This document shows positions 1 through 39,955 of a stretch of 64,000 bases of DNA, piece by piece (position 1 is the stretch's first letter; every line of letters begins with the position of its first letter). The stretch lies in assembly GCF_026210795.1 (NCBI RefSeq), contig NC_089429.1:4712001-4776000 (forward strand), read 5' to 3'. The notes beneath the pieces were generated by a model. It was not told where the DNA came from. It was given only the letters and a program-made list of their open reading frames with translations, and searched no databases. The translations under genes were made by a program, and so were the position numbers. Source of the DNA: Rhizophagus irregularis (taxonomy: Eukaryota).

Positions 1-1
1 A

Positions 2-1153
2 GGACCAAATGCAGGTACCTATGTAAATGGGTCTGAAGCACAAATCTATTCAAGAGATATAAATAATGCATTAGCAACTATTAGAGCAACATTTATTCCT
101 ACCCATGATTTAATAGGTGGAGATAAAGCTTGGGGAAGAGCTGGTGCTCGTCCGACAGATAGAGTTGCTCCAGCTACTGCAGATGCTGGTGTTGCTGCTG
201 CTAATAATCATCCTATAGTTTTTCCAGGTATTAAACCTAACCAGGCGCTTTATTGGCTTAGAACACAATTTCCAACTATTTTAGATGAAAAGAAACGTAT
301 CCGTTTTAACAGTCTTTATCAGGAAAATGAGCCAGTTGATGCATTTTATAGAACTGTAAAGAGGGCTGGAAAATTACTAAAACTAACTGATGATCTTATT
401 ATCGACCAGTTCTTTAGAGGTCTTTCGGCTGATAATATTTTTGAAGCAGAAAGGTTTAGTAATCTTAATCCTGATGACTTGGTTAAACATCTGAGAAATT
501 TAGAACGAAGAAGGGCTGAAATGCGCTTGGGGTTACAAGATAGAAATCGACGACTTCAAGCAGATTACAGTGATGTAACTCAACCTCCGTTAGGAAAACA
601 GGAACCTGTCGTACTGACATCAAAGTCATCTGGGGTTACTCAAGAACAATTACAAAAGTTACTTAAGGCTCAAGCTGAGGAACTTACCAAGAATTTTCAG
701 GTGCAATTTAAACAATTACAAGCTCGGCCAGTTCGTAATCCACCAGTCTATAGACAGCAGATTAAACCTGTTCGACCAAAACCACAGAGACGTGTTGTTC
801 AGGATCCTCAGGATCCTGATTGGGATGATGGTTATGTAGATCATGATGTTGGTGATGACCCTGATGCTCCTGAGTGGACTTTGGATGATCATCAAAATGC
901 TATTGATCTTATTATGGGATATAAACGTGGGACGTCTAAAATACTTACAAAACAACTTCAGAAGGCTAAAGATAAACGTGATGATCTGGATTTGGCCCGA
1001 GCAATGAGAAACCTCGATCTTAATGATGATACTATGGACATTGATACTGCGAGTTTTGGTGAAAAGGTAGAATTGAGAGAAAAAGATGGTGATGTCTATA
1101 TGGTTCGTGTTGGGTCAAAAAAAAGTAGGTTCGAGTATCTCAAAACTTCTTAA
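2..1153 (+). CDS. Gag-like capsid protein (5'-truncated by window edge)
   Basis: Frame is open from position 2 to TAA at 1153, upstream of the track's 479 start. It contains LYQENEPVDAFYRTVKRAGKLLKLTDDLIIDQFFRGL, matching the retrotransposon Gag CA C-terminal pattern (LxQ..V..Y/F...F..GL), then a coiled coil and an MDID motif. No CCHC knuckle is seen. Confidence 0.75.
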   Translation, partial: GPNAGTYVNGSEAQIYSRDINNALATIRATFIPTHDLIGGDKAWGRAGARPTDRVAPATADAGVAAANNHPIVFPGIKPNQALYWLRTQFPTILDEKKRIRFNSLYQENEPVDAFYRTVKRAGKLLKLTDDLIIDQFFRGLSADNIFEAERFSNLNPDDLVKHLRNLERRRAEMRLGLQDRNRRLQADYSDVTQPPLGKQEPVVLTSKSSGVTQEQLQKLLKAQAEELTKNFQVQFKQLQARPVRNPPVYRQQIKPVRPKPQRRVVQDPQDPDWDDGYVDHDVGDDPDAPEWTLDDHQNAIDLIMGYKRGTSKILTKQLQKAKDKRDDLDLARAMRNLDLNDDTMDIDTASFGEKVELREKDGDVYMVRVGSKKSRFEYLKTS

Positions 1154-1865
1154 GTCGTCCCCAAATAAGACAGCAGTTAGCTCTTCTAGTGTGCCATTGA
1201 AAGGCAAAGCAACCCCTGTTAAGATTCCTGTGAAAGTTACTGGTAGTAAGTTTACACCTGCAAAAGCTGTTACTAAGAATGACTTATTAAGCCTGTTAAG
1301 GTCTGCAGACTTTAGGAAATTACTCCGTGAGATTCTTCAGGAGGAGTTATTGTCTGCTAGAAAAGTCACAGAGATTCCGGAGGACCTAGTTGAGGAGGAA
1401 CAAGAAGAGGATATCAGGGTAGATGATCCTATGGATATTGACATAGCTCGTTTAGAGAATACTAAAGATCTTTTAGCACTGGATGGGGAGGTTAATGGGA
1501 TAGCAATTCAGTGTTTAGCAGACACTTGTGCTAATGCGTCTTTTATTCAGAGAGAAGCTGCTGAGGAATTAGGGTTGGATATTGACAAGAGTATTACATA
1601 TAACATATCTGGTGCTTCAGGAACAGGTAGGACATTCGGCATGGTAAAGGGAGTGACAATCAAACTTACCCCTGATTATGCTATCACTGAGGACCTTGCA
1701 GTCTTAAGTGGTTACAAGCATAGGGAAATTGGGTTAAGCCGAACGTGTCTGAAACGTTACAATTATGATGTCCATGAATCACGTGAACATATAGCCTTTA
1801 CCTGTGATGGGAAGAATGTTTTTATCCCGATAGTTCCTGATGCTAATCGAGGGGATAAAAAATAA
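1086..1865 (+). CDS. Retropepsin-like aspartic protease, probably expressed as a Gag-Pro frameshift fusion
   Basis: CLADTCANASFI (DTG-type active site), flap ISGASG and C-terminal IGLSRTCLK (ILG-equivalent). Overlaps the gag end in the +1 frame at an A8 run (1117-1124). Stops at 1865 with no RT/RNase H following. Confidence 0.8.
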   Translation: MVMSIWFVLGQKKVGSSISKLLKSSPNKTAVSSSSVPLKGKATPVKIPVKVTGSKFTPAKAVTKNDLLSLLRSADFRKLLREILQEELLSARKVTEIPEDLVEEEQEEDIRVDDPMDIDIARLENTKDLLALDGEVNGIAIQCLADTCANASFIQREAAEELGLDIDKSITYNISGASGTGRTFGMVKGVTIKLTPDYAITEDLAVLSGYKHREIGLSRTCLKRYNYDVHESREHIAFTCDGKNVFIPIVPDANRGDKK

Positions 1866-1890
1866 GACCCTTTAATTCTTCTATTTTTTT

Positions 1891-2982
1891 TTATTCCCAA
1901 AATTTGCGAATTAAGTCAGGAACATCCTCCTTCAACTGGTCAGCAGGTTCCCAAGTAGCCTCAGTGTCTGGATAGCGCTCCCACTTAACCAAATACTGGT
2001 CTTGACCTTTTCTAATGCGATGCCGAAGTATCTGCTCAGGAACAAATCTTTCAGGTTGTCCTCTTATTATAGAGTCAGGTGGAGGCTTTTCATTAATAGG
2101 AACTACTTGCAATTCCTTTCGGGTATATGCACATCTGGATACACCTAATCGACCATGTGGTCCGTTAAGGAGATATGTAGGAGGCTGTTCGGGTGAGAGT
2201 ATCATTTTTTTGATTACACGAATGTTTGGGTTCCATCTTATGTCTCCTGTACGGAATTTTCCGTGAAGTTTATTACCGAGTACTGAGATAGGTTCATCTA
2301 ACTTGACTCTGACACGTGCTCCTTCAGAGAGGAGATCCGTCTTTTTTGACACTTTGGGTGATCCTGTCGGAATGTCTGGGGGATTTCTCTGCCAGAGTTC
2401 ATTTACTTTACTCACTATATTATGGAAATCTTCTGACCATTCCACGGATGTCACCCCGGTTTTCAACTCCTGTGCTACCATTCATTTAAGAAGGGGTTCT
2501 TGGATGGCTTGGATAGCTCTTTCAGCATAAGATTGCTGTTTATGCCTTCCTGGCTCTCCGAACCTCATCATTACCCCTAGGCTGTTCAGGAAAAAATCAC
2601 GTACCTGGTCGTTAGTGAATTCTGATCCGGAGTCTGTCTCCAGTCTGTGTGTTGGTGGCTTAATACGATTTCTTCTGTAGATTTTGACAAACCCGTTTAG
2701 AACTCTATTTGCAGTCTTATCCTTTAGGGGTTCTGCATCAACTCTCTTTCCTGCAACTTCCACCACTACGAGAAAATAGTGGAATCCTTTGGGGTCAACT
2801 GGCATTTCTGCAAGATCTGCCTGATGTGTTGCATTTGGTTTCCATACAATTACCTTTGGGCGTTCTGTTGACTTTTCCTTTAGGGGCTTTTTGTATAGGT
2901 TGTAGTGCTCTTCACCTTTTAGAATTCGTGCTGGTACTCCGGAGAGATTGTAGTACTTATAGTAATTCTCTAAGTGTGACAT
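1891..2982 (-). pseudogene. Polinton/Maverick-type DDE (rve) integrase with C-terminal chromodomain, split by one in-frame TGA
   Basis: ORFs 2482-3018 and 1891-2481 are in the same frame and joined as LLK*MVAQ. Catalytic D (HQADL), D (ETDSGSEF) and E (SYAERAI); GARVRV...WNP...QPPTYLL...YTRKELQVV; chromodomain EQILRHR...YLVKWERYPDTEATWEP. No HHCC finger. Likely ATG at 2982. Confidence 0.85.
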
Positions 2983-3026
2983 ATTACAACAAATTAAAGG
3001 AATGGTTTTAGATTTCAAATCTTAAA

Positions 3027-3347
3027 ATGACACGTTTTTACTGCCTAAAGTGCAAGAAGGAAACTGAGACGGCTAGTGAAATACAAGATATGACTACAAA
3101 TGGGCGTTACCGGCTGCATGGTGACTGCACAATTTGTGGTATGCATAAGAATACTTTTACTGGAATAGACTGGATGATCAAGAAGAAGACTAAGGAGAAA
3201 AAGAAAGAAACCGCTGCTAAGAGACAGCAGACGGCTTACAATCGGCAATGCAAAAAACTTGGACAGAAAATCTTAGATTCTGATGACGCGTGTAAACAGT
3301 GTATTGATAAATGCCTTAAGGAGGCAAAAAAGAGGAAGACGGATTAG
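3027..3347 (+). CDS. Small Cys-rich Zn-ribbon protein (DUF5679-like) with basic tail
   Basis: FYCLKCKKET...TTNGRYRLHGDCTICGMHKNTF resembles DUF5679 (from memory). Lys-rich C-terminus with additional Cys residues. Confidence 0.6.
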   Translation: MTRFYCLKCKKETETASEIQDMTTNGRYRLHGDCTICGMHKNTFTGIDWMIKKKTKEKKKETAAKRQQTAYNRQCKKLGQKILDSDDACKQCIDKCLKEAKKRKTD

Positions 3348-3428
3348 TACTGTCTTCTAAACTTATCTTGATATGCTCTATTCTCAATACCCATTGTTCA
3401 ATTACTTATTTTTTCTGACGGGGAAAGT

Positions 3429-3498
3429 GGCCATAGTTCGGTGGTCATAGTTCGGCGGTCATAGTTCGGCGGTCATAGTTCAGTGGCATAGTTCGGTG
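3429..3498 (+). repeat. Five ~14-bp tandem repeats (GGTCATAGTTCGGC consensus) in the element terminus
   Basis: Read directly. Further GG(T/C)CATAGT copies near 3569 and 3674-3700 (x3), and one inverted near 3609. Confidence 0.9.
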
Positions 3499-5414
3499 TC
3501 CCAGGTATGTAGATAAAGGGTGGTCATAGCTTAAATCGGGTTTTGGAGCCTGAGGGGCTAACTAAGGTGGCCATAGTATTATCATAAGTTTTTCGAACTG
3601 TGGCCAGTACTATGACCGGATATTCTGTCTGATTTTGGCTTTATTCGCGTTTTTATCCACTTTTTAGTAGTCTGGTCATAGTGGTCATAGTGGTCATAGT
3701 AGTTTTATGTATAAGAAAAAATGGATAAAAAAAAGGAGTTGGAAAGTAGTGTGACCAGCCATGGCCACTGTGGCCATGGTGGTAGTATATATGGGGATTC
3801 CTGGGACCTGCAAGGTCCAAATAGGTACTGCGACGGGTCGTTAGACCCAGAGGTGGGTGGTGCTTGCACCTCCCACATCCAGCCCGACGACTAACAAAGG
3901 TACCTTAAAAATGAGATCAGCTTTAAAGTTTGGCTTTAACAACGTGAAAGAACCTAAAAAAAGAAAAAAACTCATTAATATCATTTATAACAGGTTATTA
4001 CATGCACTATTAACCTATATAACACCTACCGAAATGAAAAAAAACACAATTGGCGGTAAATCTTAGCTTTTACAACGAAAAAAAACCTAAAAAAAAAGAA
4101 AAAACACTTGTTAGTGTTGTTTCTAAAAGCTTCGCGTACACCAACAACCTGAATAACACCTACCGAGACTTCGCCAAAGTGGAAAGTAAGAGGTCTTCTT
4201 TAGAAAGGAAATCAAATTAAAGAACCTAAAAAAAAGAAAAAAATTGGTTAATATTGTTTACAAGAGGTTAATACATATACAAAAACTTTGAAGAGGCCGT
4301 TTAAATTAGTTCATAGTCTATATAACCGACACTTACCAATATTTTTTCCAAATGAGAAGAAGGAAGAGTAACGAAATTGACATTAAACTTCCGTTGTGAA
4401 AAGAATCTAAAGTGAAAGAATCTAAAGTAAAAAAAAAAATCGTTAATAGTGTTTTTAAGGTTATTAAACACGGTGTATTAAACTTCACCTACCGAGTCTT
4501 TAAAGAACGAAAAGTCTCTTTTCAAATGATATTAACGTCAAAATCCACAACGCAAAGGACCTGAAAAAAGAAAAAAAAACCTTTAGTGTAGTTTTCAAAA
4601 CAAGACAAAAAAGAAGAAAAAAGAAACCAACCATCGAATATAAACATGATAAACAATGTTTTTAATGAAAACGTAATTAGAAAAGAAATGTAAAGGTTTG
4701 TTTTTATTAAAGGGTAGGGACAAAGAAACCAAAACAGATCGAAGAATTTTTTAAAAAAAAATTTTTTAAGATCGTGTTACAATTGAAATTTGACGCGCCA
4801 CAAAAAAATTTTTCGCCAATAAAATTAGGAGGCGCATGCCCTTGCGACATATCGCGGGTGCGATAAAAAACAAAACCCTTTTTTTTTATTACTAATACTA
4901 ATAATTTACTTTTTAACACTACTAATTTGCTCACTAACTTCATACTTTTTTATTTAATACTAATAATTTACTTACACTAATAATTTACTTTCTTCTTTGA
5001 TACTACTAATTTACTTTCATGTTACTAACATACTTTATTTTATTTTATTTTCTTACAAATTTTTATATTTATGATTATATCAAATTTAGTATTTTATTTA
5101 TGAAATATTGTGTATATTTTTTATATTTTAAGTCAATAAAAAAAATTCATAATTTCACTTTATAAATTGCCTGTTATTACTGTAAAATTTAACCTATAAT
5201 TCCTAAAATATGGCCTAAAATTTGGCTCAAAAATCACAATAATTGTATAAATTCAGGTCAAAAATAGGATAATTATTGAATGAATTACCATGCAATAATT
5301 GTGTGATTTATTGCAATTTTTAGCACAATTATTGTATGGTCAAATATACAGAAATCGTAGTGAATTTAATTGAATGATTTTTCAACAAAAATCACACAGA
5401 CTTTTTTCATAGGG

Positions 5415-6230: not shown

Positions 6231-7160
6231 AATAGATCATGTGACTTTATGTTACTTACTTTGTCAATTTCCGTTACTTACTTTCTATATATTCATTAAA
6301 CATCATAGTGATGTGAAATTTCGGTTACGTGTTCTCCAAACCTTTCGTATTTTTTTAATTTTTAATATCCGTCAATAAAATACGATTTCCCTATATACGT
6401 ACAACTAAATATGTTAGAAAACCATATTGGTGCAATTTGCATCCATACTAATTCTTTAATATTAAACGATTAATTAATCGATTAAGAACTTTGGTTAATG
6501 ACATTAATCGGTCTTTAATCAGTTAAAGCATTTTTTTTTGGCCGATTCCAACCTCCAAATAAAAGTACATTTAATTCATAATTTTAAATTTCAATGATTA
6601 ACCGATAATTTTATTGAACCTTGTTTCTATGTTAAATTATTTAATATGCTTTATAATTTTGGTTTAAAATAAACTTCGCCTCCTCACTGCCTCTATCGGC
6701 GCTCTGTAATATCCGTATATTATCGGTTGATAATAAAACTAAACTTATCATACTGAATTCTAACTGAACTGAACTTAGAACTGTCATAACTGAACTTCCA
6801 ACAACGGTCCTTTTTATAATGTTAAAATTTTGGTACAATTCTGTCTTTTCGAACAGAATCGCCATTCGGCTCCCGGCGATCTGGGCACATTTGTTATACT
6901 GTCACCTATATTCAGCCACCTTTCTATCGTTAAGCTTCCGTTTGTTTATCTAATCACTAAATATCTAAAAATAACTAAAAATAACTATACTAAAAAAAAA
7001 GATAAAAATAGATTAAAAAATAAAAACAATAAAAAATAAAAAATATTTATCCCGTGACAATATACACGTAATGCATTTTTTGGTTTAGTACAACATAGTA
7101 CAGAATATACTGTACATAAATAGGATTGAAAAAAAAAGTATTACTTTTTCTAAAAAAATC

Positions 7161-8457
7161 GTGACATAGAAATTTTATGTGAAGATGAAAAGAAATTATA
7201 TGGTTGTAGAGCAATTTTAGCAGCAAGGTCCGAAGTATTTGATAGACTACTTTATAATGGGATGAAAGAAAGTTATGATAATCAAATTTCTTTTTCAAAG
7301 TTAATTCCGCCGGGATGGAAATTATATTAGAATATATTTATACGGGATCGATTAAAGAAAAATCTTTGACAAAAGATAATGCAATTGAAGCTTTTACGCT
7401 GCTGATTATTTTCAATTATCAGACCTTCAGGATTTTATTACAAAAACGGTTATGAATACTAATTTAGTTAAAAATTATTCACCGGAATTACTATTTAAAA
7501 TTACAGAAATAACTCAATTAGCGAAAGATAATGTTTTTCTTATTTATTGGTTGAAACAGTAGCAATTATGTCATTGTAATATTGAAATTTGGTCGATTGT
7601 CTATTACGGGTCTTAAATGTCTTTTGTCTATTACACATGAAAGAAATGCCTTTCGTGACCCCCGAATATGAAGTTTTTTGGTATAGTGCAATTAGCAGCA
7701 AAACAAGTTTCTAATGATGCATTTAAACTTTTTTGAAACGATTGCCAACCTTAGACCAATTGGAGGATTCATCAAAAAATTGGAACCTTTGGTCAAGTAT
7801 ATTGATTTCAGAAGAATTAAACCTCAGATATTAGCCAATTTTATTGAGCCACTAGAAATTGTTTCAAATAAAATAATTTTTAACTTTTATCGATATGTAG
7901 CGTTATCGAATAATTTAAATTTAAGTAACACTCGTGGAAAATCACAAATTAATGAAATCGGCTATGTTTGGGATAAAATCAGCATGTAGATCAAAACTTA
8001 TTATTGAGGATAATGGAAAAGTTGTACGTCAATCTTTATGAACGGCAAAATATCAGAGTTAAAATGTTATTTGAAAATAATGGTATTTTTGAATGGGATG
8101 TTATTATTGAGAAAGATTGCAATGCTTCTTGGGTAGGAGTATGTGCATCAGAAAATTTTGTCATGAATATTTTGCAGGAACTCAATCTACTTGATGGGTA
8201 TTAGACTATTAGGTTCCGATGGTAGTTATAGCCATTCAAGAAATAGAGTACTATACAATAATTATTGCTAATCATTCGGAGATGGAGCAAAAATTACAGT
8301 ACATATAGATATGAATAAGAGAACTTGTTTTTTTACAGTCAATGGTACAAAATATCCAGAAGTATCAGCTTGGAATAATCTATCATCAAAACTTTATCCA
8401 GTAGTATCATTAAAATATCCTGGTCGTATTCGAATTCAACCTCATCAAAAAAGTTAA
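7161..8457 (+). pseudogene. BTB/POZ-SPRY pseudogene
   Basis: Colinear with 10088-11494, but the start is deleted and there are multiple frameshifts and stops. Ends ...YPGRIRIQPHQKS*. Confidence 0.9.
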
Positions 8458-10013
8458 AATGTTTATTGCAAATTCAAATTTTATGACTTTATTATATGTG
8501 TATTTTTTTGATTATGAATTATACCATGTACTAATTAAATTATTAAGCAAGAAAAATAAAATTGTTTATATTCTCGTAATATCAAATTTATTTATGTGAT
8601 ATAGAAAGAATTGTTTCGAACTAGTGTTCCAATCCGTTTAAACGGATAAGGCGTTTTATACATCCTGTATATTTGAATATATAAAGATAAATTCAAATTA
8701 GCGTATCAGATGACTAACGTGCAGTATAATCTGGTAAATTATAAATTTGGCTCGAGTTAATATATATTCTTACCGCAGACTATAATTTCCGATTTATTTA
8801 CACGGATAAACGGATAAGCCGTTAATTCCTGTTCTGTAGCGTCCAATATCTATTAGCTCAGGTTAATTTATAATTTATCAGAATAAACTATAGGGTAGAC
8901 ATCTGATATACTTATTTGAATTTAGCTTGATAATGCAGATATTTGTAAAACCCATAGGGTAGATCGGTCCACAAATATTTTCTACGCCGCCGAAAATACA
9001 CGTGTATTGTCACAGGGTCAGATTTCCACATATTTCCACAATATTCGATGTGGATTTTAAGTGGAAAAAGTTTCCTGATGTTAGTTATTCTTCGATCTCC
9101 TTGATTTTGTACCAATTCAACTTTTAAAGTTGTTGAAGAGAAGTAATATTATTGATTATAGCTGCAGATTATTCAATTTTTTTTTATTTGCAAGACCTTT
9201 ATGACAGTGAATTGTTATAATATTATAAAGTACTAGTACTACGGTATATTATATTCTTTACTTATTTTGTGGAATAATTATGCTATTATGATACTATGAT
9301 GTGCAGAACATTTTAATTATGGACGAAATCTTATATAGAATAATTATTTATATTTAATGATTGTAAATTATATTCACTACGAGTAAAGTTCACAGCAACA
9401 TTTTATAATGTAATTTATTTATAAAAATAAAATTTATTCACCCAACTTTCAAGTGTACTTAGTGTTTTAAAGGATTGTATTATTTTTACGCCAACAGTTA
9501 ATGGTGGATTTAACATATAATTTCTCTTTTAATTGTTATAAAGAAAAAAGATGGTTCTTTAGGATTTTATTTATAATTGCGTAATACAGTTGTTTCTTCT
9601 AAGACATAAAAAAAATTTACTCTATAAAAGTATGCTTCTTAAAATGGTTTTGTAAAATAAGATTTATTTGAGGAGGCGAAGTTTATTTTAAACCAAAATT
9701 ATAAAGCATAAATAATTTAACATATGTATTAAATGTACTTTTATTTGGAGGTTGTAGCCGACCAAAAAAAAAAAGCTTTACCTCGTTAAAGCGATTAACG
9801 TCATTAACCAAAGTTAGTTCTTAATCGATTAATTAATCGTTTAATATTAAAAAATTAGTACGCAAATTGCACCAATATGGTTTCTCACATATTTAGTTGT
9901 ATATAGGGAAATAGTATTTTATTGATATTAAAAATACGAGAGGTTTGGAGAACACGTGACCGAAAATTGCAGCAGCTATAATTCATATGATATGCACGTA
10001 ATGCATTTTTTGG

Positions 10014-10034: not shown

Positions 10035-10087
10035 ATAAATGGGATTGAAAAAAAGTATTACTTTTTCTAAAAAAGATTTCTTGAAAA

Positions 10088-11494
10088 ATGACAAGAGGAT
10101 ATTCGTTAGAACAAGATTTAAGATTATTAATAAACAATCCAAAGTATAGTGATATAGAAATTTTATGTGAAGATGAAAAGAAATTATATGGTTGTAGAGC
10201 AATTTTAGCAGCAAGGTCCGAAGTATTTGATAGACTACTTTATAATGGGATGAAAGAAAGTTATGATAAACAAATTTCTTTTCCAAAGATTAATTCCGCC
10301 GGGATGGAAATTATATTAGAATATATTTATACGGGATCGATTAAAGAAGAATCTTTGACAAAAGATAATGCAATTGAAGCTTTTTACGCTGCTGATTATT
10401 TTCAATTATCAGACCTTCAGGATTTTATTACAAAAACGGTTATGAATACTAATTTAGTTAAAAATTATTCACCGGAATTATTATCTAAAGTTACGGAAAA
10501 AATTCCATTAGCGGAAGATAATATTTTTCTTAATTTATTGGTTGAAACAGTAGCAATTATGTCATTAAATAATATTGAATTTGGTCGATTGTCTATTACG
10601 GGTCTTAAATGTCTTTTATCTATTACACATGAAAAAGAAATGTCTTTTGTGACCCCGGAATATGAAGTTTTTCGGTATAGTGCAATTCTAGCAGCAAAAC
10701 AAGTTTCTAATGATGCGTTTAAAACTTTTTTGAAACGGTTGCCAACCTTAGACCAATTGGAGAATTCAATCCAAGTAGAAAATGAACTTATCCCCGATCA
10801 TCAAAAAATTGCTAAAGAATTAGAACCTTTGGTTAAATTTATTGATTTCAAAAGAATTAAAGGTTCAATATTAGTTGATCTCATCGAGCCGCTAAAAATT
10901 GTCCCAATTGAAATAATTTTAAATATTTATCGACAATCTATAAAATCAAATAATTTCAATTTAAGTAATACTCGTGGAAAACCACAAATTAATGAAATCG
11001 ATTATGTTTGGGATAAATCAGCATGTGGATCAAATTTTATTATTGAAGATAACGGAAAAATTGTGTGTGCACCAAATGATTGTAGTTACCAAAATGTTAG
11101 AGCCAAAATAGCATTTGAAAGTAATGGCATTTTTGAATGGGATGTAATTATTGAGAAAGCTTGTGGTAATACTTGGATTGGAGTATGTGCGTCAGAAAAT
11201 TTAAATTATGAAACCTTTGCAGGAATTCAACCTACTGGATGGGTATTGAGTTCTGGTAGTGAGCTTCGTAATCATAATAGCTATATAGTAAATTATTGTC
11301 CCACGTTTCATGAAGATGGTGCAAAAATTACAGTTCATTTAGATATGAATAAAAGAACTTGTGCTTTTACAATCAATGATGGTAAAAAGTATCGAGAAGT
11401 ATCAGAATGGAATAATCTACCATCAAAACTTTATCCAGTAGTATCATTTCGTTATCCTGGTCGTATTCGAATTCAACCTCATCGAAAAAATTAA
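10088..11494 (+). CDS. BTB/POZ + SPRY (B30.2) domain protein
   Basis: YSDIEILC...CRAILAARSEVF..LL (BTB), a BACK-like helical middle, and FEWDVIIEK...WIGVC...ITVHLDMNKRTCAF...LYPVVS (SPRY). Intronless, 468 aa. Confidence 0.93.
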   Translation: MTRGYSLEQDLRLLINNPKYSDIEILCEDEKKLYGCRAILAARSEVFDRLLYNGMKESYDKQISFPKINSAGMEIILEYIYTGSIKEESLTKDNAIEAFYAADYFQLSDLQDFITKTVMNTNLVKNYSPELLSKVTEKIPLAEDNIFLNLLVETVAIMSLNNIEFGRLSITGLKCLLSITHEKEMSFVTPEYEVFRYSAILAAKQVSNDAFKTFLKRLPTLDQLENSIQVENELIPDHQKIAKELEPLVKFIDFKRIKGSILVDLIEPLKIVPIEIILNIYRQSIKSNNFNLSNTRGKPQINEIDYVWDKSACGSNFIIEDNGKIVCAPNDCSYQNVRAKIAFESNGIFEWDVIIEKACGNTWIGVCASENLNYETFAGIQPTGWVLSSGSELRNHNSYIVNYCPTFHEDGAKITVHLDMNKRTCAFTINDGKKYREVSEWNNLPSKLYPVVSFRYPGRIRIQPHRKN

Positions 11495-13134
11495 AAGATT
11501 AGAATATTTTGTATAGTCTTATACTTTAATTCTTACTTAGATATACATACGTTGATTATGTTATGTATATTAATCAGATTATTAAGCCAAAAAAGATAAA
11601 ATTCGATTTTCGTCTTCATTTATCAATAGTGCGTTACATAGAAAGAATTGTATCAAACTTCATTAATTCTAGTTTTTGGTAACAAGGGAATATTTCATAA
11701 ATATTATTTAATTGTTAAAATCAAGAATGATAAACTATTTTATTGGAAATTTTTTTTTTTTTTCAAAAGTGTTGGTGCAAGATAAGCTACAAGAGCTTAA
11801 AAATATAATCACATTGCATTTTATCGCATTATAACCATAAGAATTTCGTAAGATTCGAATTATGTTTATTAAATAAAGCTGAAATAATCTTATTTAGTCG
11901 GTATATTTTAAATGACAAGACATTAGTACTCATTACAATATGAAGTTTATTGGATTGAGACTTATTGTTTCACTACTCTCTTCAAGAAATTTCTCACATT
12001 GAACAGATATTTTCAAATAAGCCGGCTGGATTTTCCATATAAAATTACATATAGCCTGCTATAAAATTTGTCCACGGACGAGTCGGACGATCGTATTCGC
12101 GCGTGACAGTTTAGTTTGGATGTAAAGAAAATTTATTGGCCTTATAAAAAAACTGAATATATACAAAACAATCATTTACTAATTTAAACGTAATTTTTAA
12201 CCACCTTATAATTTGTACATAATCTAAATGTAAAATATATGGAAAAATGAGACCAATTTGAACAATATATGTCATAATTTTATTTATTTTACGTTTAAAA
12301 ATATTACTAATTTAAAAATTTTATGTTTACAAATTGGTAAATTATTTGTAAATTATATCATCCAACAAATGCAAATTTATGTTTCTTAAATAATATACTG
12401 CGATTTCATTTATATAATAAATTAATATAAATGAAATCTAAGTATACAAAAGTATTAAAATACCGGCTAGATTATATATATATATTACATCATTTTTAAT
12501 AAGTTTAAACAGTTTGCTGCGGTGCATACTTTATTTCTATTCAATATAAAAAAAATATATATATATAAAAAAAAATTTTTCATTCATCAAATTTCTTGAA
12601 TCATCGTAAACTGGTTGTTCTTAATTATCAATTGGTTGTTTTTCAGTAAACACGTTAGAATATTAATTTGTTGGCTTTGAAAGTTTTAATAGTTATAATA
12701 TAAAATGTTATCAAAGTTGATTCAACGTACAATTGAAGTTTATTTTACTTTTGAAATCCCATCAAAGACCGTTAAGTAGTAGTCTTGAAACCTACAAAAT
12801 AGAAATTAAACTATTATTTAATGGCTTAATAAAAAGAGCATCAAATTTTGAAAAGTCTAATTCTTCTGAAATTATGTTTAAAGAAGTATTCAAATCTTAC
12901 AGAAAGAAAACAGGATCATTAGCGAATGTTTAATTAGAAAAAACTAAAAGGAGAAAGACTCCAAAAGTATGGTTTCAAAGAGGAAGTCATCCAAAGAAGC
13001 CAGAATTTACAAAAAAAATTAATAAAGATTTTCTAAAAAAAATCTTCAAAAAAACTCATAAGAATAATACTTTTGAGGTTATCTAAATCAATAAGGTTTT
13101 TCTTATCGAATCTTTGGTTTCCATTGGCTTGGCC

Positions 13135-13850
13135 TTAAGGACTTAACGAATATTCGAACTATTTCACCAACTGCTAAACGTGGAAGTGCATGGGAAGTGA
13201 AACTAAGATATCCAGAAAAATTACACCCATCACATTCAGACTTTCCTTTCTCCCCAGAAAGACGAATAGCAAAATGTGAAGAACTTAGCCGTTATCAGAA
13301 TAAATTAATTGAAAAATTGAGCAAGGTGGAGACAGAAAATTAGTGGCTACGTGGATAGGTATATTCTTAATTATAGAAATTTCCGACAATATCTTGAATT
13401 AGGACACGTACAGTATATCGTATCTTAGAATTTGACCAATCCCCCTAGCTCGAACCTTACATTATGGCCAATACATTACGATGACGTAATGCAAAAAAAT
13501 GCCTTTGAAAGAAATCGACGATGATAGTGATTATTCAGATGATCATCCTTAAAAATTACCATCTGATCAATAACCCGTCCAGACGGTACACTTGAGCTAA
13601 CTAATATGAAGGTCATTGGAGATAGAACGGCGAGTTCAAATAATCAGGTATGCCGGTAATCGTTCAAAATCATATGCAGTTGAAACTGAGGAATGTGACT
13701 AAAAACATACTAAAGGCGAAGGGTCTTAAGAAATCACGAGTGTTGTCTGTTGTACCTTTGATGACGTTGAAGACAAACTCAAACCGCGAATTTCTTACGA
13801 TGTGAACGATTTGTACCATACACTATCGGCAAACAAAGATACTAAATGAC
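13135..13850 (+). pseudogene. Relic of Polinton/Maverick-type protein-primed DNA polymerase B
   Basis: Manual translation across frameshifts gives, in the expected order: GSAWEVKLRYPEKLHPSHSDFPFSPE; DRYILNYRNFRQYLELG; VYRILEFDQSP*LEPYIMANTLR*RNAK-NAFE; DSDYSDDHP; NMKVIG; RSKSYA; KAKGLKK. Confidence 0.8.
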
Positions 13851-14586
13851 CAGGCTTCAACATGAACAATTAGTTATTGTCGAAGACCTGCATATAAACA
13901 AGCCGTGGAGAAATATGGGGATGCTATACCTGAAGAGATACTAGCAGGTTTGGATATATAAACGAATTAGAAAAGTTATTTCAACATACGACCATATTAT
14001 ATAGTAGGTAAAGGTAATTATTTTTTTCAAAACAAAACTTTACATTACCTCGTATACATGAAACCACTTAATAGATAACGGTTCAGTTTCAGCAAGCACT
14101 ATCACCGTATCACGTAGAAAAGCGCAGATCAAAATAACGGAAGAGGGGTTTCATGCAATCATACGAGGAGTAAGTTCATAGAAGGATATGCCGGTTATAT
14201 AAGCAGATTATGCCAAGAAGAGAAACCGGGTGAATATATAAGAAATACCGCCGTGATGCTATTTCCAGTATAACGTTAGATGGCGATACAGGAAATGGTA
14301 TGCTAATAAAAAAAATCTTTTGGAACCTATACAAATTATACTACGAGTTATCGAAGAAGGACGGCATATGGTCGATAATGACATTAGTAAAGCTATAGTC
14401 TATAGAGGTTGCGATCAAAGCTGCGGATATTTTAACATACTAAGTTGATATATTTTGTTCGTACTCGGAACAATTTGCTGAGCCACATGTACTCTCGTGC
14501 TACACAAATGAACAAATGATCACACATTCACACGACAAAGATCTGTGCAACAGCTGAATTTCTCAAATATAGTATTTAAGCCGAAA

Positions 14587-15959
14587 ATGTCTATTACTTT
14601 GTTCTATCTCGTCAAAGGTAATACAATCGCGAACGCGTTCTCTGAATAGGAACGAGCCCATTAGTGAACTCAAGGAAGCTATAAAGGCGAAAAGCACCCC
14701 GAGTTCGATAATTTTCCTGCAGACAAACTAAAGTGGAAGGTGGAAATTGCTGGCGAACACGACGATCAGTTGAGGAATCTCATACTCAAGGACAACGAAG
14801 AGCTCCTTGCCATAAGAAAATTTTCGAGATACTTCCCTCTGAAGAGTGTCTTCATGTCATAGTCGAGCCACTTGTGCTAACTGCCACTTCGAGCCGCGAA
14901 CAGGAATTGCTTGACCAAATCGCGCGTCGTTGGAGGAGCCACTTAACAAGTCTGTCCATGGTACGTATTTTTTTCCTGACCCAAGATCAGCGAAATTTTA
15001 GGTTATGAATTTTTTACTGACCCAGTTATTGCACGACGTCGTCGTTAGTCCGAAACGAAAGGTATAGACGATGAACATCGAACATGCAACTCTCGAAGAC
15101 CTCAAAACAAATGACGGAGCGGTACTCAACTTCATGAATGACGGAGCGAGATATTCACCTAGGAACGATGTCGCATTCCGAGATATGTTGCAGTCGCTCG
15201 TGACCTTAAGTTTACTGTGTTCATAGAGACTCCCTCAAAAGCTTTCTCAGATTTGTCATTCCCAAAGGTGTGTCAGCTTTATGGACTTGGCGATCCTTCA
15301 TTGTCAGTGTTCTCACTTGTGAGTATAAAGATCTGAAAAACGATTCGTTCCAGGTAATAATTAAATATCTTATAGTTGAACTGGAGGCTCGTCTAAAGGC
15401 AATCCCGATCAATGAAAGCGACGCACCGAAATCACAATACGTGTGTTCTTACCTTGTTGTAGGTGCAAATCTATACGAGCTTCGACCAGCAAAATATCGC
15501 AGGACCCAATGGACATGGATTGGTCGATTTCACAATAGACTTGCCCAAACCGCAAAACGGTTGGTGCGACATAAGTAAAGGACGAAGATTTTTTTAAGGG
15601 TATTGCTCAGAATGCCATACAACTTGAATCCGCTTTATCAAACCGTAAACGTAAGGCAAACGAGATGGAGGAGGATAGTATGTTTGTGAATAAGATATTG
15701 GGAATTGTCACAGATGCGGAAAAGTGTACTTTATGGAATGCTCACTCGACGATCAAGACAGGCAAAGATTCAAACTATTGAGGCCGGTATCCGTTGTATA
15801 TGATAGTGAGAACATGGGAGGTAATGTTGAAAGAGTTCTCGGACATATTTGGAGGAGGTGCAGAAGCTGGATTCAGCTCTTGACGTAGGTAATAAGAGGG
15901 AAATAAAACGGGTAAGGTCGTTGGTTAATCTTGCGGGAAAGACAGATACTGAGGCTTAG
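14587..15959 (+). pseudogene. Crinkler (CRN)-family gene with putative REase-like C-terminus, frameshifted
   Basis: Starts MSITLFYLVKGNTIANAF, then PEFDNFPADKLK-WKVEI and LHVIVEP (CRN N-terminal ubiquitin-like domain). C-terminal pieces KDEDFFKGIAQNAIQLESALSNRKRK and GIVTDA. Confidence 0.8.
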
Positions 15960-16109
15960 TATAAAAATTTCAGCGGACAATGTTCGCCAAAATCATGTAT
16001 AGATCTGTGTCTTGTATTTATTTTATCTGTGTTAAATAAAAAAATTTCGCTGACCTCGGGTCAGGATTACTTTTTTTCTTATCTACAGTGTACAAACAGT
16101 ACTTTCGAA

Positions 16110-17300
16110 ATGAAAGCCAAGGAGAACGCTAGACTTATGATAAGATTACTGTGCTTGAGGCTGGGAATATTGAGATTAAGGCCGAGAATACGAGATTAAG
16201 AGCCGAGCTTAAGGCTAAAATTGAGGAATTGGAAAGTAGAGTAGATGTCACCACTGAAAACGCCAAACTTAAAGAGTTGCGAAGTTGGAACAGAATTTCA
16301 GTCAATCACAAATTGAAATGGCTCACGATGAAGCTGTCTCCTCTTTTACCATCTTGCGTGAGTAAGAAGACAATAAAGGACAGAGAGACTGATGAATTTT
16401 TGGACTCAGAACATAAGAAAAAGTGATAAGGCAGCACAATAAGGGGAAGAGACTTCTGCGTGAATTATCTCCCCGGAAGACACCCTCGATTTCCCAGAAT
16501 ACTGTACAACTACTTACCATACGAACAGGACTTGATTCGAGAAATAACTATCGGTGTCAGATGCAACGACGTATCTCCTAACCGGGATCCTCCGAAAGGT
16601 ACTTTGCATGATTTCATATCCCAGTTCATGTGACTGAAATTTCGCTGACCTTTGGTCAGGAAAAATAGGATATCTTGCAAAACGTAGCTCATGTATATAA
16701 AAAAGCATATAATGCAGAAGACGATACGATAAAAGCTAATCAGACGGATTTTATTATAGGATTTGATAAAAGTATAGATGAAATCATGGTTAGAGATAGA
16801 GTGAGCATGAAAAAAGCTAAAGGTTGAATTTACGATTTTATTATTGCACAAAATTCTGGTGCTAAGCATGAAACTCTTTATAGGAAAATCGAAAGATCTA
16901 GGAATATTTACAGGCTATTCGAAAAAATAGGACTAGATAATGTCAGATATATTAAATCAAATAGTGCAAACTCTATTTCGAAATTCTCTAACGGAAATTC
17001 GAACTATTATCCGGAGAAAGATTCCAGTGAAATCAAATCAAGATGATCAGACTAATGCATCGGAAGCGCAAGCGAACACCTCGATTTCAGCTAAGGAAAG
17101 TGTCTCAACTGAATCCCGCTTGCCGGAGTTAAATCCAAAAGAACCATTTATTATTAAAATAAATCGGATATAGATACTCTTGTCCTTCATTTGCAACAAG
17201 AATTCATTAGAATTGGTTAATTATCAGAGATACTGAGCTAAATTTGATAGTCAATATGAGTGAAGCTGATAAAGTTGGGAGGCTAAAATGAGAATCCCTA
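16110..17300 (+). pseudogene. Degenerate coiled-coil protein gene, probably cargo of the same decayed element
   Basis: Coiled-coil segment AENTRLRAELKAKIEELE followed by broken coding-like frames (IERSRNIYRLFEKIGLD...SANSISKFS). No family assigned. Confidence 0.45.
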
Positions 17301-30243: not shown

Positions 30244-32155
30244 CTTCTCTTTTCTTTTTTGTAAGAGATTTTTTGTTTTGTGAGTATTAATTTTTTAAAG
30301 TATTGAATACAAAAAGAATACAATTTTACCTGATCCACTTGTATAATTAGTAACCTAAAGTGAATGTAATAATATGAAGAGCCCAAATTGAACTTGATAA
30401 GGTTCCAAAGAAGAAGTATGCAGTAAGAAACGTCAATAACAAAAAGAATATAATTGGTGAACAGCAGCAAAAAGTAAACAATATCCTATTTTTTTTAGTC
30501 ATTCTGGATATATTATTGAATAAAAAATTTTATTGTACAGTAAATCTGATCTGTTTTTTTGTAATATATACATAAGAATGAGCATTCTTACCCCTCCGTG
30601 GATGTCCAGTTTTATAAAAAAATATCGAGTGATGTGTTAAACTATAACGAAGATAATTAATTTGATTAATGTAATGATTAATCGAATAATAATGGTGGCT
30701 TAGTAGCAAAGCCAATTTTATCTCAGGATCTGATTAGCCGATCATCTCGTGATTTTGATGAGTTGATAATTAATTTGATTAAAGTAATGATTAATTGAAT
30801 AATAATGGTGGCTTAGTTGCGATCAAGGGAGATGGAATCTGATTAGCCGTGATTTGAGGGATCTCTGTGGTAGTGCCGTGTGATCATTAATTTCCCGTGA
30901 TACAAATTTTTTTGTGAATATATAATGATCTCGGAACTAATTTAACCAATTCATGATGTCAGGAAAATAAGTGTTGGGGAAATTTGAATCATGATATTCT
31001 CTTGTATAAGTTGATAAAGAATCGCTATAATTCGTTAAAAGCTTTATATATCGATAAATTCACTAAAAATCGCTTATTATTTACTAAAATGTCAGAGGTT
31101 ACTTCAAATAGCGTTATTAACATCAATATAATTATTCAATGGCGACTACCTAAGCCTATCAATAACCGCCCTTGGATATGATATGAATTATTATAGAGAA
31201 TATCTTGGAAATTACTCTATTATTAGTGATACTCTATGACAAACTATCAACAATGGGAAAGAGGAAGTCTCCAGTGCAATGGAGATTACGAGTTAAAACT
31301 ACTCTTCAATATTTATTATTATGAAAAGAATATAACATATACTATCGTTTCTGATTGTTTGCAGGATTTGGTGAAGGCAAGTTTAACGAATTATTTCATT
31401 CTTGTGACCGTAAATTCTGAGACCAGCGAAAAGTCATCCCGATTAATAAAAAATAAAAAACAGTGCGGACATGCTTTTTATCACCTGCCGATCATTTAGC
31501 GCTCAATAATTAACTTCAACTACTATAAAACTTGGCCATTAATTCTTGGATTTGGTTAAAAAAATTATATATAAAAGATTAAAATAAAATAAATTTATAA
31601 GTAAAATTTGAAGATACATTGATATCTGGAATTTTCGATTGGAGTAAAATTAATGGACATATGGATTATGTGGTAAAATCAAATAATCACACTAAAAAAA
31701 TTATGACAGTATATGAATATGCTTAGCAGAAGTTTAAAACTTTGTATAGATATTCTTTACATTTGTCGCTCATAATACAGGTTTTTTACTTGTAAAGAAT
31801 TCAACTAATTATAATATTTGCTTATTTAAAATTAAAAGGTAGTTACTTATGAAAGTTGGCCAATAATGATTTGATTTGTATAAAAATCTATTTATTTAAA
31901 ATTTGGTATAAAATAAATTTTTCAGTAATTTTCAGTAATATTTTGAAATATGAAATTTTTCAACGACGGATCATAGCAAATCACATGCTCAAAAATCACG
32001 TGCCGGGCTGAAGATGAAGGCGTTAGGCGTAACTAAAATTCATGTACAAGGTTTAGTGGTTTAGTACAACATAGTACAGAATATAGGTTCTTTTATAATC
32101 CAAAAATAGGATTGGGGTAATTTTTCAAAAAAAAAAAAAAATTTTTTTAAAAAAA

Positions 32156-33553
32156 ATGACAAGAGGATATTCATTAGAACAAGATTTAAGATTATTAATA
32201 AATAATCCAAAGTATAGTGACATAGAAATTTTATGTGAAGATGAAAAGAAATTACATGGTTGTAGAGCAATTTTAGCAGCAAGGTCCGAAGTATTTGATA
32301 GACTACTTTATAATGGAATGAAAGAAAGTTATGATAATCAAATATCTCTTCCAAAGGTCAATTCCGCTGGAATGGAAATTATATTAGAATATATTTATAC
32401 AGGTTCAGTTAAAGAAGAATCTTTAACAAAAAATAATACAATTGAAGCTTTTTACGCTGCTGATTATTTTCAGTTATTAGACCTTCAGGATTGTATTACA
32501 AAAATAGTTAAGAATACTAATTTAGTTAAAAATTTTTCGCCGGAATTATTATCTAAAGTTTCAGAAAAAATGCCATTAACAGAAGATAATAAACTTCTCA
32601 ATTTATTGGTTGAAGCAGTCTCAATTATTCCATTAAACAATATTGAACTTGGCAGATTGTCTATTACGGGTCTTAAATATCTTTTATCTATTACACATGA
32701 AAAAGAAATGTCTTTTGCAACTCGGGAGTATGAAGTTTTTCGGTATAGTGCAATGCTAGCAGCAAAACAAGTTTCTAATGATGCATATAAAACTCTTAAG
32801 GAACTACTGCCAACTTTAGAACAAGTAGAGAATTCAATCAAAGTAGGAAATAAGTTTATTACCGATCGGCAAAAAGTTGCTAAAGAATTAGAACCTTTGG
32901 TTAAATTTATTGATTTCAGAAGAATTAAAATTCAGATATTATCCGACTTTATTGAGCCATTAGAAATTATTATCCCAGATAAAATAATTTCTGATGCTTA
33001 TCGATATGTAGCATTATTAAATAATTTAAGTTTGTGTGATATTCGTGGAAAACCAATTTATGAACCCAGTTATGTTTTTGATGAGACAGCAAGTGGATCA
33101 AAACTTATTGTTGAAGATAATGGAAAAATTGTGCATGCACCAAATGGTGTCGGTCATCAAAATGTTAGAACTAAAATAGCATTAGAAAATAAAGGTATTT
33201 TTGAATGGGATGTAATTATTGAGAAAACTTGTACGTGGGGTTGGGTTGGAGTATGTGCGTCAAAAAATTTAAATTATGAAAGCTTTGCAGGATTTCAACC
33301 TACTGGATGGACATTAGGTTCCAATGGTGAGTGTTATAATTCTCATAAAGCAGTAAAGTACTGTCCTCCATTTGGTGATGGCACAATAATCACAGTCCAT
33401 TTAGATATGAATAAAAGAACCTGCGCTTTTACAGTCAATGTTACAAAGTATCAGGAAGTATCAGAATGGAATAATTTACCACCAAAACTTTATCCAGTCG
33501 TATCATTGTGTCATCCTGGTCGTTTTCGAATTCAACCTCATCAAAAAAATTAG
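32156..33553 (+). CDS. BTB/POZ + SPRY domain protein
   Basis: 465-aa intact paralogue with the same motifs as 10088-11494. Confidence 0.93.
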   Translation: MTRGYSLEQDLRLLINNPKYSDIEILCEDEKKLHGCRAILAARSEVFDRLLYNGMKESYDNQISLPKVNSAGMEIILEYIYTGSVKEESLTKNNTIEAFYAADYFQLLDLQDCITKIVKNTNLVKNFSPELLSKVSEKMPLTEDNKLLNLLVEAVSIIPLNNIELGRLSITGLKYLLSITHEKEMSFATREYEVFRYSAMLAAKQVSNDAYKTLKELLPTLEQVENSIKVGNKFITDRQKVAKELEPLVKFIDFRRIKIQILSDFIEPLEIIIPDKIISDAYRYVALLNNLSLCDIRGKPIYEPSYVFDETASGSKLIVEDNGKIVHAPNGVGHQNVRTKIALENKGIFEWDVIIEKTCTWGWVGVCASKNLNYESFAGFQPTGWTLGSNGECYNSHKAVKYCPPFGDGTIITVHLDMNKRTCAFTVNVTKYQEVSEWNNLPPKLYPVVSLCHPGRFRIQPHQKN

Positions 33554-36225: not shown

Positions 36226-36664
36226 AAATTTAATTATGATTTAATCATATAAATAAACTTCATTCACCTTAACTTTTATGAATAATTTTTTTTTAAACGA
36301 TAATGGGAAAATGAATTGTAATTTCATTTTAATTTTTATAAAGAAAAGAAATTTACTTTGGGGTTTATAATAGTTTCATTATCTTATTGAGCCTTATTTT
36401 CATCGTTTTAGATTAATTATTTTTACTCATAGTTGAGATTTAAGCATTCTAACACAAAAATTCTTGTTTATGATAATCATAACCATATATATATTTTTTT
36501 AGTGAAATAAAGGCGCAATGATATACGTGAAACATATCCTTTTTCACAGATTAGTGCAACATAGCGGATATATAATTATTTGGTTCAATCCGAATACAGA
36601 ATTATTACAAAAAATATTTCTATTTCCAAAAAAATTATTTTTTTTTTAAAAAAAAAAAAAAAAA

Positions 36665-38062: not shown

Positions 38063-39955
38063 GATGCTTATTATATTTATTATAAATTTTATAACTTTAT
38101 TATATGAATTATTTTTTCGAATAAACTAATTTATGAATTATAAATAAATATATGATCTATTATTTATATTACCTTGAAATATAGAAAGAATTGTATCGAA
38201 GTGGTAGAACTTCATATTTCTATTAAGTAATTTCATTTTTTGCATTTTTGGTGAAAATATTCAAGTAATATTATATTTAGATAAATCATGCATAAAACTT
38301 TCAGAAGATTGATGAGATGATTGTATCAAGATTCTGATAAGTTAAACTTCGTCACAATCGTTATAATCACAGTAAATTATTAGCGAAAAAAGAAAATCGT
38401 CTTAATATTATTATACAATGCAACTACTAATTAAAGGGTATATTTTGAGATCTAAATTACGTTTATTATATAATGCAGAAAACTAATGTAATCTCATTCA
38501 GTTAAACAATTCCTATTATGAGGCTGAATTCAATGGCACTCGTTCAATTTGAGGGTTAAGGACTTGCATGATGATCTAAATTTTTGATACATATTAAATA
38601 TGTCGTTGATTAAAGGAAAAAAAAATCCAATATTATTTATTTATTAGAAAAGGATTGAGTTTACTAATAAATGTGTTGTAGTGATATAAAAGTTCTGTGT
38701 GAAGACGAAAAGAAATTATGTAGTTGTAAAGCAATTTTAGAAGTATTTTGTTGACTACTTCATTTATAATAGAATTAAGAAAACCAAATTTCTTAAATTT
38801 CTTTTTCAAATTAAATATAATCTTGGAATGGACTATGCTGAAATACAAGTATTATTATGTGTAGCTCATCGTGAGATGAATGTTGCGTATGTACGTAGTT
38901 TAAAGGAGATTTTAAACGTTTCTTAATATAAATAATATTTGCCGTATAAAAAAACCCGCGTGCAATAATTATCAGCCAATTTCTTATTACATTTCGTTAG
39001 TAAGCATAAATTTTTTAAAAATACATATTTGACTGACGTTACCTGTTCACAAATAGCGTGATACAATTTTTTTCTCTGGTGAAATTCGATAATATCTTTA
39101 TCTAAAAGATAGTCATACATCTATTCTAAAATTGTTCGTTATTTAACCCCATTTTTATTTTTCAGTATATACTTGTATATTTGCAATTGTATTTTTAGAG
39201 AAAGTAACGATTTCTTTTTTGATAAATTGTTTTGCTATTTAACAGAATTAAAGAAACGAAAATGAAAAGAAATAACATTCGTAGAAGGAAAAGAAGTTTT
39301 ATTACATACATTAAATAGAAAAAAAAATTATAAAATCGATTGATAGAATTCTATTTAAAAATGACATCGATAAACATTTTTACTCACATCATAACAGCGG
39401 CATGAGGTGCTGAGTAACTATTAAATATTCTCCATGCTTTTATGTTACTTCACGAGTTCATTTTTACAGGATAAAACTGTAATTCTATATAAAGGAATAC
39501 AATTTATCTGTTTGTAGTTTTGATTAAACAATGTAATGTTTACTAATTAAAAAAATTTGTTCATTATTTTAAATAATTACTCTCATTACGCGTAATATTA
39601 AACATATCATAATTTTATTTTTAGTTTATAATAAGAATCATTCACCCAAGTTTTTGATATATTTAATGGCTTAAAAGTTTGCATTGGTTTCATAATAATA
39701 GAAAAATATTATTTAACAATTATTATCAGTAATCACGTCATTTTTATACAAGATAGTGACATAAACCAAGAATTTTTTTTACAATATGAAGGCGCAGTTA
39801 AAATTTCAATGATTCAATTGATGCATGAATTGCATGATGCACATGTCACAACATTCAGAGTTTAGTACAACGTAGTACAGAATATAATTCTTTATAATCC
39901 AAAATAGGATCGTGAAAGTGTATTACTTCTCTAAAAAAAAAATTTTTTAAAAAAA

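Follow-up and report, generated by a model that had tools for sequence, protein, structure and literature searches.

A Polinton/Maverick-type DNA element of Glomeromycota with Gag and aspartic protease genes in place of a jelly-roll capsid module

We analyzed a 64,000-nucleotide stretch of the Rhizophagus irregularis genome (contig NC_089429.1, positions 4,712,001 to 4,776,000; hereafter the window). Its first 3.9 kb are almost certainly the right part of a high-copy Polinton/Maverick-type DNA element of Glomeromycota, in which a Gag and an aspartic protease replace the jelly-roll capsid and the cysteine protease. A reading of the letters alone (the original prediction) had proposed here a Polinton-like DNA element whose Gag capsid is matured by a retropepsin, perhaps an undescribed class. 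The combination stood at the gene level; the claim of an undescribed class, taken strictly, was not supported, because the lineage is known and traces of the combination are already in print. The first 4 kb of the window have 39–42% GC, against ~25% in the surroundings. The closest homologues of the integrase (93–95% identical) and of Gag (up to 96%) were R. irregularis proteins from many different contigs, and the element is thus high-copy.

The window opens inside gag (2..1128, + strand), the 5' part of which lies beyond the window edge, leaving it ~100 codons short relative to full-length homologues. The family stop is a TAG at 1126–1128; in this copy the Gag-like open reading frame (ORF), cut by the window edge, runs on to 1153 (2–1153, + strand). 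An A-run slippery site (1117..1128, + strand) lies immediately 5' of the family stop. A linker and a retropepsin-type aspartic protease (1077..1865, + strand; core 1437–1862, catalytic Asp in a DTC motif at 1521–1529) end without a reverse transcriptase (RT). A 25-nt spacer (1866..1890) separates this stop from that of a convergent gene for a stand-alone DDE integrase of Polinton/mavirus type with a C-terminal chromodomain (1891..2982, − strand; chromodomain ~1894–2046). Divergent from the integrase is a DUF5679 Zn-ribbon gene (3030..3347, + strand), followed by a repeat-rich terminal region (3427..3892) with a 14-bp unit repeated 5.2 times at 3427–3498 and a 9-bp unit repeated 3.1 times at 3673–3700. 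Profile matches bore out this layout as originally described, including the opposite strand of the integrase and the 25-nt distance. The window copy is damaged, because its integrase contains an in-frame TGA (2482–2484) where homologues have Arg, and its A-run (1117–1124) lacks one A that many sister contigs have. The TGA is specific to this copy: another base accounted for nearly all contig depth in 4/4 sequencing runs.

The retropepsin ORF matched Asp_protease_2 (E = 1e-8); the catalytic Asp was kept in 24/24 protease sequences and the following Gly in only 2. The integrase matched rve (E = 1e-9) and Chromo (E = 8e-18), with two catalytic Asp kept in 31/31 aligned homologues and the Glu visible in the alignment. 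It lacks an HHCC motif, since the N-terminal 56 residues were free of Cys in 30 of 31 homologous integrases, and it carries the Polinton-like motifs HQADL, AEPLK, QPPTY and ELQVV that had been read from the letters. The nearest Atlas clusters were stand-alone rve or rve-chromo proteins of 300–370 residues. Among the six Atlas sets listed, five were viral in the majority or by half, and Preplasmiviricota was commonest in four (0.94–0.96). Of 75 stretches in IMG/VR, only two were relatives of the integrase, both weak; they are Polinton-like virus integrases that lie in Polinton-like contigs right after a DNA polymerase-like ORF. Comparison of the integrase core with the PDB gave weak retroviral matches only (best E = 0.004), which were uninformative for placement. 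An inverted copy of integrase residues 252–296 was seen inside the integrase gene of one lineage (L035:6309-6443, L036:6051-6185, L060:204-338, numbered as the metagenome loci below). The DUF5679 gene matched its profile at E = 4e-17, and this domain is reported as common in Polintons/polintoviruses and mavirus-related elements (PMC11131425, PMC13215967). Membership of the mavirus-related lineage is likely.

Gag matched Pfam weakly (E = 0.0009–0.08). A Gag family profile searched against the PDB ranked the capsid (CA) domain of PEG10 first (E = 0.0013), and the Atlas label was Retrotrans_gag (0.92). The structure model had a mean predicted local distance difference test score (pLDDT) of 67, with the CA helices mostly at 70–90. 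Foldseek matches listed for this model were exclusively CA proteins. In the VIA comparison the top 28 rows were all retroviral, retrotransposon or domesticated CA, several of them covering both domains; examples are MLV CA (Z = 8.8, 185 residues aligned, root-mean-square deviation (rmsd) 14.3) and the HERV-K C-domain (Z = 9.3, 81 aligned, rmsd 3.2). Gag thus has a retroviral/retrotransposon CA fold, as the original prediction would have it. The modeled N-terminal domain of CA holds an insert of ~100 residues, and the C-terminal half of Gag is coiled-coil/acidic. No zinc knuckle was found in the Gag of this element family; the variability of the Gag alignment precluded pattern scans.

The gag stop and the protease frame were related in a regular way across the metagenome loci. 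In 22/23 loci the protease was in the −1 frame and an A-AAA-AAA/G heptamer lay 0–15 nt 5' of the gag stop (L033 could not be assessed). This count has no chance baseline and the DNA is A-rich, yet the coincidence with the gag stop is exact. Folding of the 70 nt of RNA after the slippery site gave no strong structure (−3 to −15 kcal/mol). In several lineages the protease frame contains an early ATG.

We scanned metagenome contigs with the integrase alignment; 115 pattern matches gave 62 loci (numbered with L). A convergent protease followed the integrase in 31/34 loci with at least 200 nt past the integrase. Gag was present in 18/18 loci with at least 1,100 nt on that side (15 by tblastn, 3 by hidden Markov model (HMM)); DUF5679 was found in 36 of the 39 loci that have 200 nt or more ahead of the integrase (35 by tblastn, 1 by HMM). 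The synteny that had been proposed as a check was therefore conserved, and it recurred in relatives down to 52% integrase identity. The loci were not all of one lineage, because 26 proteases split into 12 clusters at 80% identity, with identities as low as 38%. Protease and integrase stops were 14–74 nt apart in 30/32 loci. A nested-insertion junction at 1866–1890, unique to this locus, was therefore rejected: the spacer is a conserved short gap in a recurrent layout. Variable cargo genes, several of them F-box-like, were seen between DUF5679 and the terminus (L003, L004, L009, L010, L019, L035), with a Pfam F-box match for L013:6269-6793 only.

Gag is under purifying selection. Omega values from a codon model were 0.093 (integrase), 0.109 (protease) and 0.132 (Gag CA), based on 11 of 13 loci after two near-identical ones had been dropped; pairwise dN/dS medians, which were near saturation, were 0.14, 0.25 and 0.55 for integrase, protease and Gag. 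The integrase and protease trees were mutually compatible (approximately unbiased (AU) test, p = 0.11 and 0.17). A full HMMER search returned 411 proteins at E ≤ 0.001. These included second-tier Gags from Entrophospora, Diversispora, R. clarus and R. irregularis (P0493, P0494, P0498, P0509, P0516, P0521, P0600, P0604) with the same CA insert, an in-frame coiled coil and, in many cases, a zinc knuckle and a retropepsin. Scans of second-tier proteins (24 and 13) gave no RT domain; these proteins may represent the retro-element donor or further Gag-bearing DNA elements. In Entrophospora P0600, one stretch resembled an integrase C-terminus by eye; the integrase profile did not confirm it.

Six loci extended past gag into a coiled-coil ORF of ~400 residues. 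Because this coiled coil is fused to Gag in the second-tier proteins, the ORF may be a split-off N-terminal part of Gag. Its reading frame differs from that of gag, whose start it overlaps by a few codons (L013:3795-5057, L010:4553-5680, L061:2458-3639). In 5/5 loci reaching further (2 lineages), an A32-type ATPase lay next to the coiled-coil gene on the opposite strand; its Walker A was intact and its Walker B read FED, and in L013 it matched Pox_A32 at E = 3e-9. For the window's own subfamily no such ATPase was seen. L013 is the longest relative (11,021 nt, integrase 67% identical to that of the window), and it carries all modules on one contig. Past its ATPase lie an F-box gene, three small ORFs and a 626-residue protein. 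The gene order in relatives is thus pPolB (the protein-primed DNA polymerase), small ORFs, A32 ATPase, coiled-coil gene, gag and protease, then the convergent integrase-chromodomain gene and, divergent from it, DUF5679.

The 626-residue protein was identified as a polymerase by its fold. Searches of its sequence against the PDB and Pfam gave no match; its homologues carry PF03175, and its model (pLDDT 79) matched phi29 polymerase (Foldseek E = 1e-10; Z = 19.9, rmsd 4.1, 313 residues aligned). Residues 107–205 were OTU-like (best Z = 7.1, rmsd 3.3, 89 aligned; many OTU rows). The OTU Cys/His and three palm motifs were at least 90% conserved across 37 polymerase sequences. By its model the L013 polymerase is of the short type found in mavirus, with terminal protein (TP), vOTU and palm; we infer that the N-domain is the terminal protein. 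Fused R. irregularis gene models place a DUF5906/D5 (superfamily 3, SF3) helicase upstream of pPolB.

Of the further genes that the original prediction had named for a search in relatives, pPolB and the A32 ATPase were thus present. No RT domain or YxDD ORF was found in the six long loci; the normal RT upstream that would have refuted the original prediction was not seen there. No capsid family was detected among the ORFs of L013, a contig that lacks both ends, by Pfam, NCBIfam or PHROGs, so that a jelly-roll gene was likewise not seen there. Nor was an adenain-type cysteine protease found among the L013 ORFs, where the aspartic protease stands instead.

The window element was tied indirectly to a polymerase through R. 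irregularis protein accessions, whose order served as a proxy for position (isoforms included). The gag-pro GBC39242.1 is directly followed by the integrase GBC39243.1. Six numbers separate the pPolB GET54082.1 from the gag-pro GET54076.1, which is 96% identical to the window Gag over 355 residues. Pairs of pPolB and integrase lie 8–11 numbers apart on equal-length contigs (CAB4420166/CAB4420174, GET54171/GET54180-82, GET50469/GET50459-61). A search of prokaryote genomes gave no matches.

Polintons/Mavericks have long terminal inverted repeats, an AG-type terminus and a 6-bp target site duplication. Sister contigs diverged from the window sequence after 3891 (9 contigs, 3 runs) or 3893 (2 contigs), and in element-free contigs a 148-bp host repeat begins at 3892. 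The element therefore ends ...CCCGACGAC(T) at 3891–3893, which reads (A)GTCGTCGGG inward from the outside. A CA terminus at 3896, as first proposed from the letters, was rejected, and the CA/TGT type of end with it, since the CA at 3895–3896 is host DNA. The region 3427..3892 is probably the right terminal inverted repeat, the other end lying outside the window. The window's terminal region aligned with the ends of relatives in short pieces only. Unlike L003, L046 and L047, the window copy has no cargo gene between DUF5679 and the end. The flank at 3892–4200 was seen to be host repeat, with 148-bp and 254-bp tandem units in other runs.

Taken as a whole, the data are best explained by a Polinton/Maverick element with a swapped-in Gag-protease, the Gag shell enclosing the element's linear DNA; we regard this account as probable. 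The predicted DNA-enclosing role of Gag is by itself rated slightly lower, as somewhat favored. Under this account the element would be excised or copied out as linear dsDNA, which the protein-primed polymerase (N-domain, OTU and polymerase) would replicate with the help of the SF3/D5 helicase. As in retroviruses, Gag alone would be the main product, and −1 slippage on the A-run, either by the ribosome or during transcription, would occasionally yield Gag-protease. Gag would then assemble and the protease trim it, with DNA-protein complexes enclosed by co-assembly, or with the aid of the ATPase where an ATPase is kept. Since part of the family seems to do without the ATPase, co-assembly around DNA-protein complexes is favored over pumping into a preformed shell. 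The particle would shelter the DNA and carry it through the shared hyphal cytoplasm between nuclei, perhaps also between individuals at hyphal fusion, and the integrase would insert it, guided by the chromodomain.

Several results weigh against this account. Foldseek E-values for Gag were weak (best 0.011), and VIA Z-scores of 8–9 are middling for a helical protein. The activity of the protease is uncertain because 22/24 sequences have a D-T/S-C/A motif and only 2/24 have DSG, and in 3/34 loci (L005, L018, L019) a different gene takes the place of the protease beside the integrase. Simple counting put Gag dN/dS at the 0.55 given above. The CA tree conflicted with the integrase and protease trees, with rejection both ways (AU p < 0.005), and Gag CA distances were uncorrelated with those of integrase/protease (Mantel rho 0.0, 13 loci). 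We read this as exchange of the CA region among family members, in a test limited by partial sequences and few sites. The apparent dispensability of the ATPase counts here as well: Table S1 of PMC4028283 gives an ATPase for 1/3 Glomus entries, and among the rows listed from Dataset 5 of PMC13215967 none pairs Pox_A32 with retropepsin_like. The window itself has no visible pPolB, so that the link is the accession order together with the 67%-identical relative. Because the L013 contig misses both ends, a major capsid protein (MCP) beyond the helicase is excluded by the literature only. Our IMG/VR search found no relative of pPolB, the ATPase or two Gags. Finally, RNA run X20, of which a small share was used, covered 13/30 bins at a depth of ~2 and says nothing on expression.

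The most substantial rival, which we hold to be unlikely, makes Gag-protease a fixed cargo with a non-packaging job on a plasmid-like transposon, for example as a dominant-negative capsid against retro-elements or competing Gag-Mavericks or as a scaffold of the replication body. The fast-changing and swapped CA region, the patchy ATPase, the atypical protease motif and the variable cargo genes near the terminus would all suit such a role, as would genes for a solo CA C-terminal domain in L006 and L011. A restriction factor, however, needs no protease joined to it through a conserved −1 site (22/23 loci). In addition, gag-pro is part of the core, next to the ATPase, and hardly ever occurs together with MCP (1 vs 57 in the Dataset 5 rows of PMC13215967). 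The solo genes were observed at the DUF5679 position (L006:130-591 and L011:133-417, both − strand), each with a Cys-motif N-terminus and a lone CA C-terminal domain of Gag (HMM E = 6e-5 and 9e-7, respectively). Such lone domains recall truncated-capsid restriction factors.

The remaining alternatives are less probable still. The window subfamily could be a short non-autonomous derivative (gag-pro-int-DUF only) that borrows its polymerase from full elements. The left part of the element does lie outside the window, and the absence of cargo before the terminus fits a short form; we nevertheless judge this improbable, as a near-identical gag-pro is six accessions from a 626-aa pPolB. A shade less probable is that the Gag particle packages element RNA, which a helper retro-element reverse-transcribes in trans, the DNA polymerase being a second route. 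Gag shells normally package RNA, and zinc-knuckle relatives exist in the same fungi. Against this, Gag of this family is without a zinc knuckle, the genes lie on both strands with 25–50-nt gaps, neither a long terminal repeat (LTR) nor a direct terminal repeat was seen, and the motifs of pPolB have been conserved. Least probable, and largely refuted, is the chance nesting of an LTR retrotransposon, or a functionless remnant of one, inside a Polinton. The window copy is indeed damaged, and LTR elements sometimes nest in such elements (5 RT_LTR-retropepsin rows in Dataset 5, PMC13215967). Against chance, the module sits at one position and in one orientation across 12 protease clusters with identities down to 38%, omega values are 0.11–0.13, the protease and integrase trees are congruent (AU p = 0.17 and 0.11), and no RT motif was seen in the 6 long loci. 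The Polinton/Maverick element with a DNA-enclosing Gag shell remains our preferred reading.

The jelly-roll capsid is the defining feature of Polinton-like viruses, and Gag shells belong with elements that use reverse transcription. If the jelly-roll module has been replaced by a conserved Gag-protease under selection, this would amount to a capsid exchange between the two. It is as likely as not that the family is a dsDNA virus lineage of mycorrhizal fungi without reverse transcription and with Gag capsids matured by a retropepsin; this would be a virophage/Polinton replicon with a retro-element virion module, joining two realms, with more than one such family in Glomeromycota. If true, it would point to a possible carrier by which DNA moves within a coenocytic fungus that is a symbiont of most land plants, and to a Gag shell with DNA as its potential cargo. 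The finding would be categorically new if Gag particles carry the element's DNA, a matter on which we lean neither way. It would also be a possible answer to the standing oddity of 'capsid-less' Glomus Polintons, as these are portrayed in the relevant passages of PMC4028283, PMC7805220 and PMC13215967.

Outside the element, the window holds seven or so paralogous host genes of ~470 aa, which look like BTB/POZ + SPRY proteins (7081-8480, 10085-11494, 32099-33553, 36650-38062, 39935-41356, 49032-50489, 52223-53653). A second block of raised GC (35–42%) at 13001–17000 has no long ORFs and is probably another decayed mobile element. By eye, we also labeled a subtilisin-like peptidase ORF and protein-kinase-like ORFs (47051–48346, 56561–58178), and a nested inverted repeat of ~380 nt lies at 46121–46502.

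Among described systems, the host element most likely corresponds to the Glomus Polinton/Maverick that has long been known as 'capsid-less' (mavirus-related pMVRE group 1), to which it was likened by description. Polinton-1_GI, P_Gi1.1 and P_Gi1.2 of Glomus (Rhizophagus) intraradices very probably belong to one family with it; they share the host, the high copy number, a length of ~11–12 kb, pPolB and integrase, and in some cases the ATPase (PMC4028283, PMC7805220). In the passages on them these Polintons are described as having lost the capsid, and Gag/retropepsin, which our element has, is absent from that description (PMC4028283, PMC7805220). Table S1 of Krupovic 2014 (PMC4028283) lists two of 11,954 and 11,019 bp with no MCP, penton or protease, and the corresponding part of Bellas 2021 (PMC7805220) also has the MCP as undetectable. 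Mavericks are expanded in Glomerales, recently so in R. irregularis, according to the sections concerned of PMC11952901, PMC8647823, PMC5751038, PMC11296320, PMC11131425 and 10.1101/2025.06.16.659975 taken jointly, which draw no link to Gag; in R. irregularis they rank with the repeats of most recent expansion and are often hypomethylated (PMC8647823). The available text of preprint 10.64898/2026.06.19.733378 notes Rhizophagus A32 ATPases and has 'gag' 0 times.

Wei 2026 (PMC13215967) places Rhizophagus elements in mavirus-related group 1, with complete elements bounded by terminal inverted repeats, many of ~13–16 kb, in Rhizophagus clarus and also in Diversispora, Gigaspora and Glomus. This group shares pPolB, chromodomain, RVE, DUF5679 and DUF5906 with the present family (PMC13215967). 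Its members are called likely plasmids without a viral structural protein, whereas ours has Gag-protease; its main text has no instance of 'gag', 'retropepsin' or 'protease' (PMC13215967). In Dataset 5 of the same paper (358 complete elements), however, pPolB goes with retropepsin_like in 57 and with Retrotrans_gag in 8, MCP with retropepsin in 1 and RT_LTR with retropepsin in 5 (PMC13215967). The Fig. 5 legend of Starrett 2021 mentions Gag- and retropepsin-like genes on an unnamed PolB element (PMC8502044). Its section 3.4 names no host for that element and gives no discussion and no test of conservation or mechanism (PMC8502044). Likened by this legend, that element is possibly of the present family. 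Gag/retropepsin on a PolB element has thus been glimpsed in print, in a 2021 figure legend and a 2026 supplementary table, undiscussed in those places (PMC8502044, PMC13215967). Our literature search, with subscription journals and Repbase outside its scope, found no paper devoted to a Gag-bearing Polinton.

Mavirus shares with this family the short TP-vOTU-palm pPolB, a separate SF3 helicase, the RVE integrase and a packaging ATPase, and differs in having jelly-roll major and minor capsid proteins and a cysteine protease where this family has Gag and an aspartic protease (PMC11161782). Ty3/Gypsy and PEG10/Arc share with the element the CA fold, a downstream retropepsin and a −1 frameshift. 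Unlike Ty3/Gypsy, it has no RT, RNase H, LTR or HHCC integrase, and its Polinton-type integrase lies on the opposite strand. An ordinary chromovirus or Ty3/Gypsy element was rejected on this basis: the protease stops near the convergent integrase (30/32 loci), no RT was seen in the six long loci, and HHCC is missing. In Ginger the integrase-like transposase is the sole core gene and the termini are TGT; this candidate too was rejected, since ours is a multi-gene element with pPolB and the proposed TGT/CA end at 3896 lies in host DNA. Caulimoviruses illustrate that a Gag-type shell can hold dsDNA, and to our knowledge all known Gag-shelled elements replicate through RT. We therefore class the element as a Polinton/Maverick transposon, which belongs neither to the jelly-roll virus classes nor to the LTR retrotransposons.

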